64,000 nucleotides of DNA from contig JACRDN010000016.1 of the NCBI GenBank assembly GCA_016218575.1, positions 257,306-321,305 on the forward strand, written 5' to 3'. The stretch is from Elusimicrobiota bacterium (lineage in GTDB: Bacteria > Elusimicrobiota > Elusimicrobia > UBA1565 > UBA9628). Positions 57,001-63,000 of this stretch are shown here, in pieces. Made by a program: the position numbers. Position 1 is the first letter of the stretch. Every line of letters begins with the position of its first letter.

Positions 57001-60000
57001 TCATCAACCAGAAGAATGCCCCCAACCGGCCGATCTGCATCTACGTGGCCATCGGCCAGAAACAGTCCACCGTGGCCCAGGTTACCCAGATCCTCCAGGA
57101 CAGCGGGGCCATGGAGTACACCATAGTGGTCTCGGCCGCGGCCGCCGATCCGGCGCCTCTTCTCTACATCGCGCCGTACTCGGGCTGCGCCATCGGCGAG
57201 GAGTTCCTGTGGAAGGGCAAGGCCGTCCTCATCATCTACGATGATCTCTCCAAGCACGCCCAGGCCTACCGCCAGCTTTCCCTTCTTTTGCGCCGCCCGC
57301 CGGGCCGAGAGGCTTACCCGGGCGACGTTTTCTACCTCCACTCCAGGCTCCTCGAGAGGGCCTGCAAGCTCTCCGAGAAAAACGGAGGGGGTTCTCTCAC
57401 CGCCCTTCCCATCATCGAAACCCAGGCCGGCGACGTCTCAGCCTACATTCCCACGAACGTGATCTCCATCACGGACGGGCAAATCTACCTCGAAACCGGG
57501 CTTTTCTACTCCGGGGTGCGCCCCGCCGTTAACGTCGGGCTTTCCGTTTCGCGCGTGGGAGGGGCCGCGCAGACCAAGGCCATGAAGCAGGTGGCTGGCC
57601 GCTTAAGGCTGGATCTCGCTCAATACAACGAGCTCGCGGCCTTCGCCCAGTTCGGCTCTGACCTCGATAAGGCCTCCCAGCAGCAGTTGGCGCGCGGCGA
57701 GCGCCTGGTCGAGCTCTTGAAGCAAAACCAATACCAGCCCATGCCCTTCGAGAGCCAGGTGGTCTCCATCTTCGCCGGAGTCAACGGCTACCTCGACGAC
57801 ATCCCGAGCGCCTCTGCGCGGGACTTCGAGGCGGGGCTCTTGGGGCACCTCTCGGCCAAGCATCCAGCGATCTCCAAGGAAATCGCGGAGAAAAAAACCG
57901 TGGACGACGCCTTGAAGGCGCGGCTGGCGGCGGCTGTCCAGGAATTCAAGGCCCAGTTCAAGGCGGAGGCTAAGTAATGGCGTCCACGCTTCGATCAAGT
58001 GGAAGAGGGCTTCTTGCGGCCGCGGCTTTCGCGGCCATTGGCGCGGCCAGCGCGGGCGAGGCCATGCCCGCGCTGCAGATGATAAATCTCAGCTGCCTCG
58101 AGGCTTTGACCTCCATAGACCAGGCCGGGCTTGCCGGGGTATTTTCATTCATCGCCGAGGAAAAGACCCCCGAGGCTTTCGCCGACCTCCTGGTCCACGA
58201 CCAGAAGGCCTTGAAGAAATTCGTTAAAAAGGTGGAAAAGGATTTTAAGGAAGCCTCGGCCATTTCGACGTGGGACCAGCAGGCCCTGCAGTTCGCGCTC
58301 ACGGTCTACGGCTCTCCCCTGGCGGAGGCCTTGGGCAAACCCGCGGCAAGCGTTCTCGCCAAGCTCTCGGATCTGTCTCGGGCCCCGGCCGTGAGCCTGG
58401 GGGAGATGACGGAGCGGCGGAGAAAAGGCGCATGAAGGCCCTGGTCACGGGAGCCGCGGGATTTATTGGCTCGAACTTATGCTTGGAGCTTGCGGAAAGC
58501 GGCTGTTCCGTGGTCGGGATCGACAGTTTCCTCACCGGCCATTTCGAGAATCTCGGGAATTTCCCGGGAGACCTCGTGGCCGCGGACCTTTGCGAGCCCG
58601 CTTCCTGGAAGGATAAGGTGGAAGGCGTGGACGTGGTCTTCCACCAGGCCGCCATCACGGATACGACCGAGATGGACCAAAACAAGATGATGAGGGCTAA
58701 TGTGGAGGCTTTCAGGAGCCTGCTCTCCTGGGCCGCCGAGCAGGGAGTCAGGAAAGTGGTTTACGCCACGTCGGCCGGGGTTTACGGGGATAACCCCGTG
58801 CCCATGAAAGAGGCGGATTCTCCCAAGCCCCTGAATATTTATGCCTTCTCAAAGATGGTTATGGAGTCTCTGGCCAAGGAGTTCGCCGCGGCTCGCCCAA
58901 AAATGTCCATCGTGGGACTTCGCTACTTCAACGTTTTCGGGCCGCGCGAGCGGTTCAAGGGCAAGGCCGCGAGCATGATTTGGCAGTTGGCCCAGCAGAT
59001 GCGGGCCGGCCGGCGTCCCAGGATTTTCGAGCACGGAGAGCAATACCGGGACTTCATCTACGTGCGCGACGTGGTCCGGGCCAACCTCCTGGCCCAAAAG
59101 GCCCCGAGCGGGGTTTACAACGTCTGCACCGGGACCCGGACCACTTTTAATCAAGTCATCGAGATTCTCAATGGAGTCTTGGGAACCCGCCTAGCCCCGG
59201 ACTACTTCAAGAATCCCTATTCCTTCTATCAGAACGAGACTTTGGGCAATCCCAAGGCCGCGGAGAAGGCTCTCAAGTTCAAGGCCGAGTATTCCGTGGA
59301 GGAGGCGATTCTGGAATATTTCGGGCAAGGCCGCGGGGCCCCGGTGGGAGTATAAAATGGCTTCCCTCAGAGAGATACGCCGCAAGATCAAGGCCGTGGG
59401 CGCTCAGCAGAGGATTTTTAAGGCCATGAAAATGATCGCGGCCGCGCGCATGCGCCGATCGCAGGCCCAGATTCTTTCGGCTCGTCCGTTCGCGACCAGA
59501 ATGGAGAACCTGGTCCAAGAGCTCGCCGCGGGGCCCGCGGCGGATAGGCATCCCTTCTTTCAGCCGAGGATGCAGGGGCCGGAGGTCCTTATCCTGGTCA
59601 CGGCCGATAAGGGGCTGTGCGGCGCCTTCAACGCCGGCCTCGCGCGCGCGGCCGTGGAATGGCTCAAGGCCCGCTCCGGACGCAAGTCCTACCTGGCCTT
59701 GGTCGGCCGCAAGGGCCGGGATTTCGCCCATCGCCTGCGGGGCTTTGACTGCGAGATATTGAGCGAGACCGTCGGCATATTCCCCAAGGTTAATTTTTCC
59801 CATGCCGAACTGTTGGGCAAGGCAGTGATCGACGCATACAACGACAAGAAGCTCATGCGCGTGACCTCCATTTACAACGAGTTCAAGTCCGTGGCCGTCC
59901 AGCGCCTGGTGAGCGCCCAGCTTCTGCCCATCGCGGCGCCGCCGGCTGCCGAGGAGGGCGGGGCCTTGGCCGATTATGGCTTCGAACCCGGCCGCGAGGA

Positions 60001-63000
60001 GCTTCTCGAGGCTCTTCTTCCCCGCTACCTGAAAGCCCAGCTTTTCCGGATACTGCTCGAGTCGCAGGCCGCGGAGCTCGCGGCGCGCATGAACGCTATG
60101 GACGCGGCCTCTAAGAATGCCAAGGAGCTGCGCGAGGATTTGAATTTAAGAATGAACCGCCAGAGACAGGCCATCATCACCAAGGAAATCGCCGAGTTGG
60201 TGGGTGGGGCCGAGGCTTTGGCCTCATAGAGATATCCCCGCGGCGCCGCGGGGATTTTCAGGGGTTTAGGGTCCGTGTAATAGGAGATAACATGGCATTA
60301 ATAGGCGAATTGTTGAACGAGAAGCGCCGGCATCCCCGGTTCCCGGTGGGGATCGCCCTGGACGTGCATTCCCATGGCCAGCCAGTGAACAAGCATCGCG
60401 GGACCATCGCGGACCTTTCGATCAGCGGCATGTCCTTCGAGACGGATGCCGTGCTCGAGCAGGGCATGAGCCTCTACCTCAAGCTCGCCAAGCTCGACCA
60501 GCCCCTGGAGATCCGGGGCGAAATCCGCCACATGAAGGGATCATCCGGCCAGGGCCTGCACCGCTACGGCGTGCATTTCCACAAGATCGGCTACATGGAC
60601 CGCCAGGGTCTGCGGCCAGACCGTTTTATCACGGCCAAGTTCCGAAAAGGAAAATTATAGAGGAGGCCCCCGCAGCGTTGCGGGGGTTTTCGGGGGTTTC
60701 GGATTCGTATATAGGAGAGACAGATGAACATCGGTAAAATCGTGCAGGTGATCGGTCCGGTCCTGGACGTGGAGTTTCCCCCTGGCAAGCTTCCTGCCAT
60801 CTACAACGCCTTGAAGGTGAAGGTTCCCGGAGCGGTCCTGGTTTCCGAGGTCGCCTCGCACCTCGGCGACAATATGGTGCGGGCCATCGCGATGGCCGCG
60901 ACGGACGGCCTAACCCGGGGCATGACGGTCGAGGATTCTGGAGCCCCGATCACCGTTCCCGTGGGCAAGCCCTGCCTGGGAAGGCTCGTGGACGTCTTGG
61001 GCCAGCCCAAGGATTATAGGGGAGACATCGTCGCCGCCGAGCACCTGCCTATACACCGGGATCCCCCCGCCATGGTGGACCAGGAGACCACTCCTCAGAT
61101 TTTCGAGACCGGCATTAAGGTCGTGGATCTCCTCGAACCCTACATGAAGGGAGGCAAGGTCGGTCTCTTCGGGGGTGCCGGCGTGGGCAAGACCGTCATC
61201 ATCATGGAACTCATCAACAACGTGGCCAAGGAGCATGGCGGCGTTTCCGTGTTCGGCGGCGTGGGCGAGAGAAGCCGCGAGGGCAACGACCTCTGGCGCG
61301 AGATGCAGGAGGCCAAGCTCTCCGACGGCTCTCCAGTGCTTTCCAAGACCGTCCTCGTCTACGGGCAGATGAACGAGCCTCCCGGCGCCCGCGCCCGCGT
61401 GGGTCTCACCGCGCTCACCCAGGCCGAGTATTTCCGCGACAAGGAAGGCCAGGACGTGCTTCTCTTCGTGGACAACGTTTTCCGCTACGTTCTCGCCAAC
61501 GCCGAGGTCTCGGCCCTTCTTGGGCGCATGCCCTCTGCCGTGGGCTACCAGCCCACCCTCACCACCGAGGTCGGGGCTCTCCAGGAGCGCATCACCTCCA
61601 CAAAAAAGGGTTCGATCACCTCAATCCAGGCCGTCTACGTGCCCGCCGACGACCTGACCGACCCCGGGGTAGCCACCACCTTCACGCACTTGGACGCCAC
61701 GACCGTTCTCTCGCGACAGATCGCGGAGCTCGGCATCTATCCGGCGGTGGACCCCTTGGAGTCCACCTCGCGCATACTCGACCCCAAGATCGTGGGTTCG
61801 GAGCACTACCAGGTCGCGCGCTCGGTGCAGAAAATCCTCCAGCGCTACCGCGACCTTCAGGACATCATCGCCATCCTCGGGATTGACGAGCTCTCCGACG
61901 AGGATAAGATCATGGTGGCCCGCGCCCGCAAGATACAGAAATTCCTGTCCCAGCCCTTCTTCGTGGCCCAGCAGTTCACGGGCATGGAGGGCAAATATGT
62001 GAAGCTCAAGGACACCATCCGCGGTTTCAAGGAGCTGGTCGAGGGCAAATACGACGCGCTCCCGGAGCAGGCCTTCTACATGGTGGGCGGCATCGACGAA
62101 GCCGTCGCCAAGGCGGAGTCTCTGAAGCAATAACATGGCCAAGACCATCGCCTTAGAGCTGGTCACCCCGGAGAAGGTCGCCCTCCAGGCCGAGGTGGAC
62201 TTCGTGGTTCTTCCTGCCATGGAGGGGGAAATGGGGGTTCTCCCCGACCATGCCCCTTTCCTAGTTCAATTAAAGGAAGGCGAGGTGCGGGTGACTCGAG
62301 GCGGAGAGGCCGCCCATTACGCGGTGTCCGGAGGGTTCGCCGAGATCAAGGACAACAAGGTCTCGCTTTTCGCCGAGACCGCCGAGATGGCCGAGGCCAT
62401 AGACGCGGAGCGGGCCCGCCAGGCTTTGGAAAAGGCCAAGGCGGAGAAAGTCCGCAAGGACCTCGATCCCCTCACCTTGGCCGCGGCCGAGGCCGCCATC
62501 CGCCGCGCCCAGATCCGCCTCATGGTCTCGGAGCGCCGCAAGCCCCGCCCGAAGTAAGCCGCGGCCAGCGCCTGCGGTGGAATTAATCCTTAACGACGCG
62601 GAGCGTTTTTTCGTGAAGCTTTCCGGAATCGAGAGGGTCCTCGAGGGTTATCTCCAGTCGCAGCGTCCTGGTTCGCCCCATCTTGGGAGCTTTTTCCGTG
62701 AGTTCCACTACGTAGGCTACCTGGCCCGAGGAGGGCTCCCCCTCGGCCGCGAGGACCTTCAAGCTGAAATAGGGGAAGCTCAAAAGGACCTCTCCGCCAT
62801 GCCCGGTCGCGTGCTCAAATAACGCCCTTCCCCGCTCGTCCTGAAGAGCCTCGAAAAGAGGCCAGCGCAGCTCCGGCGCGATGGCCCCGAGGTCCACGCC
62901 GCGCGAAAGCCACTGCAAAAGGCCCCGGCGGCGTCCTGTCGTGCGGCCAAGGCCCTCGAGGAAAGATTGAGCCTCTGCGAGAGCATCGTTCCGTGGCTCA

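Follow-up and report, generated by a model that had tools for sequence, protein, structure and literature searches.

The gene order atpG-PilZ-atpD, in which a gene for a PilZ-domain protein separates those for the gamma and beta subunits of F1Fo ATP synthase, is standard in a large Elusimicrobia lineage. In the Elusimicrobia ATP synthase operon the inserted gene holds a fixed place in the F1 part and is co-expressed with it; its 122-aa product is predicted to be a stand-alone PilZ-type c-di-GMP receptor. The conserved slot, together with a neighboring cyclase-like response regulator, suggests second-messenger control of ATP synthase. The best reading, with a probability of roughly 0.45, is that the protein is a c-di-GMP-dependent adaptor acting on F1.

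The atp operon and its inserted genes

Features of the operon and its immediate surroundings in the window (the whole 64,000-nt stretch of DNA analyzed) are as follows.

52272–53243, minus strand: REC-GGDDF response regulator, divergent from the atp operon; a probable non-canonical diguanylate cyclase
53598–53627, plus strand: sigma-70-like promoter of the atp operon, TTGACA-18-TAAAAT with TG, 11 of 12 consensus positions
53647–53883, plus strand: atpZ (ATPase_gene1 family; PF09527, E = 3.9e-15)
53834–54226, plus strand: atpI-like gene (PF03899, weak, E = 0.006)
54223–54960, plus strand: atpB (Pfam ATP-synt_A)
55034–55324, plus strand: atpE (Pfam ATP-synt_C; translation checked)
55421–55927, plus strand: atpF (Pfam ATP-synt_B)
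55928–56464, plus strand: atpH (Pfam OSCP)
56454–57977, plus strand: atpA (Pfam ATP-synt_ab)
57977–58435, plus strand: conserved 152-aa protein with a signal-peptide-like N-terminus; 1-nt overlap with the atpA stop codon
58432–59355, plus strand: HldD-like NAD-dependent sugar epimerase (ADP-glyceromanno-heptose 6-epimerase family; PF01370, E = 3e-52)
59357–60229, plus strand: atpG (F1 gamma; PF00231, E = 6e-84, full length)
60235–60258, plus strand: hairpin 1, between atpG and PilZ; 8-bp GC stem, 4-nt loop, TTTT
60292–60660, plus strand: stand-alone PilZ-domain protein, 122 aa (NCBI MBI5630515.1; PF07238)
60667–60686, plus strand: hairpin 2, between PilZ and atpD; perfect 8-bp GC-rich stem, 4-nt loop, with TTTT at 60687–60690
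60724–62133, plus strand: atpD (F1 beta; PF00006, PF02874, PF22919)
62135–62557, plus strand: atpC (epsilon; Pfam)

By Pfam, the operon runs atpZ, I, B, E, F, H, A, G, D, C in standard order with three extra genes inserted; all eight structural genes of the canonical F-type order atpIBEFHAGDC are present and in sequence. Nearly all of 18 related loci share a AAATTGACAG-N17-TAnAAT block upstream of atpZ. The epsilon subunit retains its C-terminal helices. A search against Rfam was negative, c-di-GMP riboswitches included, a result that counts against the adaptor reading. Two of the inserted genes, those for the HldD-like epimerase and the exported 152-aa protein, have no obvious role in ATP synthase. 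The epimerase (translation checked) scores 268.2 bits against TIGR02197, slightly below the cut-off of 274.6. The 152-aa protein has no match in Pfam or NCBIfam; the N-termini of its orthologues (48 loci) all run from a short basic stretch through a hydrophobic to an Ala-rich one. Its AF2 model has a helical C-terminal bundle, and Foldseek returned no match to the model.

The PilZ protein

The earlier note on this DNA had read the ORF splitting atpG from atpD as a PilZ gene with a ribosome binding site and both c-di-GMP-binding motifs, and this description holds. The ORF matches PF07238 with E = 6.3e-15 (55.8 bits against a cut-off of 22.5) over profile positions 1–88 of 102, and AGGAG at 60282–60286 lies 5 nt upstream of its ATG. 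The two motifs are intact, with RRHPR (RxxxR) at residues 12–16 and DLSISG (DxSxxG) at residues 41–46. R12 and R16 are unchanged across 61 orthologues and 16 divergent or duplicated copies. D41xS43xxG46 is retained in 60 of the 61 orthologues, the exception (L038) having ExSxxG, and one of the 16 further copies (P0134) has DxGxxG in place of D/NxSxxG.

The AF2 model (mean pLDDT 74.4) is all-beta, with seven strands. Its top Foldseek matches in the PDB are PilZ domains (2gjg, 3kyf, 5ej1, 4p00, 4xrn), at probabilities of 0.99–1.00 but with E-values of only 4e-3 to 2e-2 and TM of about 0.45. The structural matches include MotI (5vx6) and the YcgR-like PP4397 (2gjg, 3kyf). Membership in the YcgR/MotI motor-brake family was considered and rejected, as the 122-aa ORF has a single Pfam domain and no PilZN (YcgR_N).

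Conservation of the slot

The arrangement is not peculiar to this window: the order atpG-PilZ-atpD was found in all 60 Elusimicrobia species loci recovered. The same slot is present in six of nine informative divergent representatives (L147, L148, L153, L156, L157, and L158/L159), where PilZ is 27–33% identical, atpG identity falls to 30%, and GC content ranges from 37 to 56%. In L148, L153, and L157, atpA is followed directly by atpG, without the pair of genes for the 152-aa protein and HldD, and in L147 there are unrelated DUF2283 genes upstream of atpG. All four retain the PilZ slot despite these differences, indicating that the link between PilZ, gamma, and beta outlasts changes elsewhere in the operon. 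Tandem PilZ copies occur in the same slot, three in L033 and two each in L148, L156, and L157. The L033 operon also has a gene for an AsnC-type ligand-binding protein between atpD and atpC.

Comparison of the atpG–atpD spacing in related genomes, suggested in the earlier note, shows tight packing. Among the 60 relatives the median gap between PilZ and atpD is 14 nt, and in 57 it is 32 nt or less; PilZ often overlaps the atpG stop codon or the atpD start, the latter by 4 nt in 16 of the 60. Median identity of PilZ (54%) is on a par with that of the peripheral subunits (delta 52%, b 59%, gamma 63%), and dN/dS values of 0.07–0.46 for the 16 closest pairs point to purifying selection.

Hairpins on either side of PilZ

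Besides the two hairpins flanking PilZ, the whole 64 kb has just one more structure of this kind. The intergenic region with hairpin 2 folds with an MFE of –27.1 kcal/mol (z = –3.4). The atpG–PilZ and PilZ–atpD intergenic regions, each a module of hairpin, T4, and ribosome binding site, are 78% identical, and the stem differences from hairpin 1 to hairpin 2 (T-A to C-G and G-C to A-T) are both compensatory. The pair is a duplicated module local to this genome. Its upstream copy (60235–60258) was overlooked in the earlier note.

Hairpin 2 had been described there as a textbook terminator, after which atpD restarts. The hairpin, with an ideal stem, is where it was placed, and atpD does have its own ribosome binding site (AGGAG at 60713–60717, 6 nt upstream of the ATG), but the remainder of the description fits less well. 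The tract reads UUUU and then CGGGGG, which falls below the five T in eight required by the consensus terminator scan, so no call was made. If the operon were truly split here, as the earlier note implied, hairpins 1 and 2 would be efficient intrinsic terminators, and atpD and atpC a separate unit with its own promoter. This would suit the hairpins' perfect 8-bp GC stems and trailing TTTT, their rarity in the 64 kb, the significant folding z-scores, and the compensatory changes between the two copies. However, a promoter scan found no promoter-like site in 60690–60724 or anywhere in 59357–60723, which means that transcription of atpD and atpC has to pass hairpin 2, and F1 beta and epsilon are indispensable. 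Nor is the terminator-like feature conserved: 57 of 60 relatives have no room for one between PilZ and atpD, and the hairpins found downstream of atpG in L008, L014, and L024 lack a T-run. A true split is thus quite unlikely. Most likely the hairpins act as leaky attenuators or mRNA-stabilizing stem-loops, with no true break in the operon.

The divergent response regulator

The gene upstream of the operon, recorded in the earlier note as REC-GGDEF, is real, divergent, and conserved, but its signature motif is GGDDF, which does not fit the catalytic GG[D/E]EF consensus and is invariant in 22 sequences. It matches Response_reg (PF00072) with E = 6e-32 and PF00990 with E = 6e-16 (59 bits against a cut-off of 23.8), the latter only over profile positions 5–92 of 161; the protein can be aligned to PleD as far as the GGEEF motif. 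Wherever a sequence spans them, GHIGGDDF, PLTRLPGN, and FKAYND do not vary. Apart from a few departures at single residues, 20 sequences also largely retain the REC motifs ADDEPD, (I/V)LD-x-x-MP, and DDF-x-x-KP, corresponding to the acidic pocket, phospho-acceptor Asp, and conserved Lys of receiver domains. All 17 loci that extend upstream of the operon (L063, L065, and 15 metagenome loci) have the gene beside atpZ and divergent from it; the more divergent lineages, whose contigs are too short, are not among them.

Like PleD-type regulators, this protein has a domain of the GGDEF fold, the substrate-binding FKxxND motif, and conserved REC residues in the acidic pocket and around the phospho-acceptor, although it has one REC domain where PleD has two. 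With GSU1937 it shares GGDDF itself. It also has no RxxD I-site, PLTRLPGN in place of LTGLxNRR, and an insertion after the signature motif. GSU1937 is active, its domain having made cGAMP and c-di-GMP in E. coli, while other GGDDF proteins, such as PA3258, have been reported inactive (PMC8835794); with this motif, cyclase activity is not assured. In FKxxND, Asp specifies guanine and is replaced by Ser in cGAMP-making Hypr enzymes (PMC8835794); the guanine-specifying Asp is present here, and FKAYND is conserved in all orthologues.

A possible c-di-GMP input to F1

In the proposed scheme, a phosphorelay would activate the REC-GGDDF response regulator, which would make c-di-GMP, and the c-di-GMP-loaded PilZ protein would bind F1. 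Gamma and beta would be the likeliest partners because PilZ is translated between them. Binding would modulate rotation, ATP hydrolysis or synthesis, or F1 assembly, in a manner resembling the braking of the flagellar rotary motor by YcgR/MotI; cyclase activity, ligand binding, contact with F1, and direction of effect are all steps that we infer. The comparative data lend the idea of c-di-GMP acting on ATP synthase more plausibility than the earlier note could give it, because the slot, the tight packing, and the neighboring response regulator are all conserved.

The main competing view is that PilZ is a passenger: a general c-di-GMP adaptor with its target elsewhere, such as pili, envelope, or polysaccharide machinery, which profits only from the strong, constitutive expression of the atp operon. 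Synteny can persist without a functional link when a gene is trapped in an essential operon, since rearranging one is costly. The operon does accumulate seemingly unrelated cargo, given the LPS-precursor epimerase and signal-peptide protein between atpA and atpG in at least 48 loci and the AsnC-type protein of L033, and such company weakens guilt by association. No fusion of PilZ to an ATP synthase subunit was seen among the best 150 profile matches. The PilZ slot, however, predates the other inserts and has changed less than they have, being kept in L148, L153, L157, and L147; PilZ has been repeatedly duplicated within it and often overlaps its neighbors, and a dedicated cyclase-like response regulator stands beside the operon. 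On balance a passenger gene is an unlikely explanation, if a serious one.

PilZ might instead be an F1 assembly or stoichiometry factor, for example a chaperone of gamma before closure of alpha3-beta3, with or without c-di-GMP, rather than a regulator of the finished enzyme. Its translation between gamma and beta with translational coupling, and conservation similar to that of structural peripheral subunits, would agree with this, but the strictly conserved binding motifs favor a ligand-gated role, and to our knowledge no F1 assembly factor is a PilZ protein; the idea seems very unlikely. Still more improbable is that the domain has lost c-di-GMP binding and become a ligand-independent accessory subunit. 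Non-binding PilZ domains exist, such as the original PilZ protein of the type IV pilus system, and the adjoining cyclase-like gene has a non-canonical motif; against this, RxxxR is invariant in every orthologue and further copy, and D/NxSxxG is lost only in L038 and P0134. Action on F1 as a c-di-GMP-dependent adaptor is the reading preferred here.

Relation to known systems

Single-domain PilZ proteins serve as trans-acting adaptors (PMC11250160). Those of the MapZ/PA4608 type and the Xanthomonas adaptor treated in that paper are likewise of about 100–125 aa, PilZ only, with RxxxR and D/NxSxxG, and bind a partner once loaded with c-di-GMP, as would be expected here. Their known partners are chemotaxis, methyltransferase, and pilus proteins, whereas the sole contextual clue here points to F1Fo ATP synthase. 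In YcgR and MotI/DgrA (brake or clutch), PilZ and c-di-GMP act on a membrane rotary motor; they carry an additional PilZN/YcgR domain at the N-terminus and target MotA or FliG, while the present protein consists of one domain, and F1Fo would be its target if it acts on a motor at all. We know of no described PilZ adaptor embedded in an atp operon.

Regulation by c-di-GMP is known for the F1-related rotary export ATPases (PMC4591828). In FliI/HrcN, as proposed here, a second messenger controls an ATPase homologous to F1 alpha/beta, but there the ATPase is itself the c-di-GMP receptor, with the ligand bound at a subunit interface, whereas here a separate PilZ receptor would mediate; F1 itself is absent from the discussion in that paper.

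Several natural F1Fo inhibitors (the epsilon C-terminal domain, alphaproteobacterial zeta, mitochondrial IF1, and cyanobacterial AtpTheta) are small F1-binding proteins that restrain wasteful ATP hydrolysis. They share neither sequence nor fold with PilZ, and gating by a cyclic dinucleotide is not known for any of them. The literature searched describes no regulator of a bacterial ATP synthase that is gated by a second messenger, and we know of none. The earlier note did not recognize the atpG-PilZ-atpD arrangement as a described one and named a gene order both common and already characterized in the lineage as grounds against novelty; it is common, but no description was found in the literature searched, which comprised 7.7 million PMC papers and bioRxiv, and a 2025 review of c-di-GMP effectors nowhere mentions ATP synthase.

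The neighboring genes may tentatively be seen as a dedicated Elusimicrobia module, in which a phosphorelay-controlled GGDDF cyclase would signal through c-di-GMP to a PilZ protein co-translated with gamma and beta and serving as a brake, clutch, or activator of F1Fo. If true, this would represent a class of c-di-GMP output, undescribed in the literature searched, in which PilZ and c-di-GMP gate ATP synthase.

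The atp operon of the window

A complete F-type ATP synthase operon spans 53647-62557 on the + strand, with the expected Pfam match for each structural atp gene among the ORF calls. Its genes are as follows.

Genes of the atp operon (coordinates, strand, identity)
53647-53883, +, atpZ
53834-54226, +, atpI-like gene
54223-54960, +, atpB
55034-55324, +, atpE
55421-55927, +, atpF
55928-56464, +, atpH
56454-57977, +, atpA
57977-58435, +, 152-aa protein without a family match
58432-59355, +, HldD-like sugar epimerase (TIGR02197, 268 bits against a cut-off of 274.6)
59357-60229, +, atpG (gamma)
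60292-60660, +, PilZ ORF, 122 aa (Pfam PilZ domain)
60724-62133, +, atpD (beta)
62135-62557, +, atpC

Three of these genes (the 152-aa protein, the epimerase and the PilZ ORF) are not atp genes and interrupt the operon. The first two form an insertion between atpA and atpG (57977-59355), overlapping or abutting their neighbors. The 152-aa protein has no Pfam or NCBIfam match and only four homologs by word index; all its orthologs carry a signal-peptide-like N-terminal segment, and a Foldseek search of the PDB with its AF2 model (pLDDT 65) returned only chance-level matches. A single strong promoter-like site (TTGACA-18-TAAAAT, 53598-53627) lies immediately 5' of atpZ. At the other end, a 383-aa ORF without a Pfam or NCBIfam match (62583-63734, - strand) is convergent with atpC and ends 25 nt from its stop codon.

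The PilZ protein

Pfam identifies a PilZ domain in the 122-aa ORF (55.8 bits, E 6.3e-15; cut-off 22.5), in agreement with the earlier note. The two c-di-GMP-binding motifs and the ribosome binding site named there are also present: RRHPR is residues 12-16, DLSISG is residues 41-46, and an AGGAG precedes the ATG by 5 nt. The protein is identical to NCBI MBI5630515.1, from an Elusimicrobia MAG. HMMs built from the PilZ and response regulator families found no further copies of either within the window, and a PDB sequence search with the PilZ family profile gave nothing significant (top match the BcsA PilZ domain, E 0.23). Recent horizontal insertion of the gene was considered and rejected because the composition profile has no step in GC content there.

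Conservation of the atpG-PilZ-atpD order

More than 150 PilZ homologs were found at 53-66% identity, and all those with an organism name are from Elusimicrobia. In a scan with each GTDB species represented by one genome, PilZ lies between atpG and atpD in all 60 Elusimicrobia loci recovered, so that the arrangement, singled out by the earlier note in one genome, is lineage-wide. On contigs that are long enough, the genes run atpB-(E)-F-H-A-unknown-epimerase-G-PilZ-D-C. Two weak matches, from Nitrospira and Methylomirabilales, were set aside as unrelated PilZ proteins without atp context.

The genes are tightly packed in the relatives, with median gaps of 16 nt (atpG-PilZ) and 14 nt (PilZ-atpD); the latter is at most 32 nt in 57 of 60 loci, and in 16 of 60 there is a 4-nt overlap between the PilZ stop codon and the atpD start. 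Compared with the window, PilZ has a median identity of 54%, as against 52% for delta, 59% for b, 63% for gamma and 66% for epsilon, so its conservation is about that of the peripheral subunits; dN/dS is 0.07-0.46 in the 16 closest pairs. The proteins fall into two length classes: the longer (109-126 aa) has a conserved C-terminal tail that the shorter (98-106 aa) lacks. One locus grouping with the short-form clade (L043, CALRXP010000010.1; 65% GC) is titled "Candidatus Endomicrobium trichonymphae", a species label that looks doubtful.

Among 1.84 billion representatives searched with a profile, 332 matched at E up to 1e-3, 51 of them at E up to 1e-10. Ten divergent representatives were checked, one on a contig too short to place PilZ; among the nine informative ones, PilZ is in the slot in six and elsewhere in three, beside glycoside hydrolases, an amino-acid kinase or FTHFS.

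Divergent loci with PilZ in the atpG-atpD slot (locus handle, gene order or position, remarks)
L147: DUF2283 x2-atpG-PilZ-atpD-atpC; 46% GC
L148: atpA-atpG-PilZ-PilZ-atpD
L153: atpF-H-A-G-PilZ-D-C; NCBI Elusimicrobia MAG
L156: PilZ-PilZ-atpD-atpC
L157: atpF-H-A-G-PilZ-PilZ-atpD
L158/L159: PilZ in slot; 37-38% GC, atpG only 30% identical to that of the window

The pair of 152-aa protein and epimerase is kept in about 48 loci and is absent from L148, L153 and L157. Since these three have PilZ in the slot, its association with gamma and beta extends more widely than the insert, does not depend on it and outlasts other operon rearrangements. Two tandem PilZ genes occupy the slot in L148 (1990-2654), L156 (41-741) and L157 (3890-4593), and the occurrence of such pairs in three divergent lineages suggests repeated duplication in place. 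Locus L033 has three (5594-6710; 113, 122 and 121 aa, each confirmed by Pfam). Across divergent and duplicated copies RxxxR is invariant, and D/NxSxxG is found in all but one. The L153 atpG was called as two overlapping ORFs (2724-3567; 196 and 100 aa), owing to a frameshift or to a sequencing error.

Hairpins flanking the PilZ gene

The earlier note described a textbook terminator belonging to the PilZ gene. A GC-rich stem-loop is indeed present (hairpin 2, 60667-60690), with a perfect 8-bp stem (60667-60674 paired with 60679-60686), a 4-nt loop and TTTT at 60687-60690. A near-identical module follows atpG (hairpin 1, 60235-60258), the two intergenic regions being 78% identical from hairpin to start codon. 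Both were seen in a custom hairpin scan and neither was called by a consensus terminator scan, in the case of hairpin 2 because the T-run is too short. Both regions fold better than shuffled controls (z = -2.3 and -3.4), and they hold two of only three GC-hairpin/TTTT structures in the 64-kb window; the third perfect GC hairpin is at 1311-1328 on the - strand (TCCGGCCCGAAGGCCGGA followed by TTTT). The stems differ by exactly two base pairs, T-A to C-G and G-C to A-T, and since both changes are compensatory the structure appears to be under maintenance. The module might have been a common dispersed repeat, which was rejected because the only other match in the window is partial (16238-16257, three mismatches, no hairpin).

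No promoter-like site was found between hairpin 2 and atpD, nor elsewhere in 59357-60723, and beta and epsilon must therefore come from read-through. The hairpins are read here as leaky attenuators or mRNA-stabilizing stem-loops. The hairpin-bearing spacers of the window (62 and 63 nt) are also exceptional among the 60 relatives, which places the proposed terminator outside the conserved design. Stem-loops follow atpG in a few relatives, without T-runs. The 119-nt atpG-PilZ spacer of locus L032 is AT-rich and forms one long hairpin (-36.6 kcal/mol) with TTCTAAG/TTAGAAC-like repeated units; perhaps a small repeat element was inserted there.

The neighboring response regulator

The gene at 52272-53243 (- strand), divergent from the operon, had been described as a REC-GGDEF response regulator. 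Pfam confirms a receiver and a GGDEF-fold domain, and the adjacency is conserved, but the signature motif reads GGDDF, without variation across 22 sequences. The protein aligns with PleD as far as the signature motif and keeps the guanine-specifying Asp (FKAYND); it has PLTRLPGN in place of LTGLxNRR and lacks the RxxD I-site. The GGDDF domain of GSU1937 synthesizes cGAMP and c-di-GMP, while other GGDDF proteins are inactive (PMC8835794), which makes cyclase activity plausible, though not assured.

Orthologs are divergent beside atpZ in loci L063 and L065 and in 15 of 16 full-length metagenomic orthologs, the 16th having no upstream sequence; short-form PilZ was reached in two of these REC-GGDDF/atpZ loci. 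A 48% identical paralog (L083) is not beside atp genes. The promoter block upstream of atpZ, AAATTGACAG-N17-TAnAAT, is strongly kept clade-wide (L063, L065, L067-L082). A further conserved block lies between it and the regulator start codon; its sequence is GAGGATAGCCGATTTTCC in short-form loci, with CTCTTATA(T)AACAT as the counterpart in long-form loci.

Relatives have only some 60-140 nt in this intergenic region. In the window, a MITE-like element (53259-53579; 48-nt terminal inverted repeats, 90% complementary, 225 nt apart) interrupts the region 15 nt upstream of the regulator start codon, just 5' of the atp promoter. On the other side, the 3' end of a thiolase gene (48671-49828) is duplicated as a 118-nt direct repeat (49679-49796 and 52090-52207, 96% identical). 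Between the copies are a gene of the beta-lactamase family (50006-51538) and a fragment of a DUF772 transposase (51600-52229). The window lacks a stand-alone receiver gene that L063 and L065 have at the equivalent place, which points to an insertion or rearrangement of local extent.

A possible action on F1

YcgR- and MotI-type PilZ proteins brake the flagellar rotary motor, and the structural fold matches of the window's PilZ protein include MotI and PP4397, the latter YcgR-like. Single-domain PilZ proteins are described (PMC11250160) as trans-acting adaptors that bind partner proteins once loaded with c-di-GMP, and c-di-GMP regulates FliI and HrcN, relatives of F1 alpha and beta (PMC4591828). 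What we infer begins beyond a PilZ domain, its intact motifs and its conserved slot. The best single explanation, at a probability of roughly 45%, is that the c-di-GMP-loaded PilZ protein would act on F1; it is favored by the fixed site of translation between gamma and beta, by reading frames that overlap, by in-place duplication, by a slot that persists through rearrangements and by the flanking cyclase-like regulator.

The gene could instead be cargo of the atp operon with no functional link to ATP synthase. The operon evidently tolerates cargo, since it also hosts a putative LPS-precursor epimerase, a small signal-peptide-like protein and, in L033, a 177-aa protein rich in tryptophan that has an AsnC-type ligand-binding domain and lies between atpD and atpC (8169-8702), and an essential operon by itself preserves synteny. 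No fusion to an ATP synthase subunit occurs among the best 150 of the 332 profile matches, where the longer proteins are tandem PilZ, an apparent chimera (the match P0149) or PilZ with unrelated domains, and Rfam, at E up to 1, gave no c-di-GMP riboswitch or other credible RNA family across 52000-64000. Against this reading stand the duplications and the persistence of the slot where the epimerase insert is absent; it is the main rival, somewhat less probable than action on F1.

Novelty and meaning

Cyclic di-GMP controls motility, adhesion, secretion and the cell cycle, and restraint of bacterial ATP synthases is thought to act mainly through epsilon, zeta or AtpTheta, or by Mg-ADP inhibition. 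No description of the arrangement was found in the full-text literature searched, and neither there nor in a review of c-di-GMP effectors from 2025 does ATP synthase figure as a target. In the main comparative-genomics paper on Elusimicrobia from groundwater, subunit presence is the only score given to ATPases, and c-di-GMP is never mentioned. The PilZ protein is a known family member in a new, conserved and suggestive context. Action on F1 could be tested without cultivation, using small soluble proteins, about 60 orthologous sets for paired alignments and recombinant F1. If true, cellular energy conversion would come under signal-dependent control through a ligand-gated PilZ regulator, and the PilZ motor-brake idea would extend to a second rotary machine; if the gene is cargo, the locus would still be a clear case of an essential operon gaining and keeping unrelated cargo phylum-wide.
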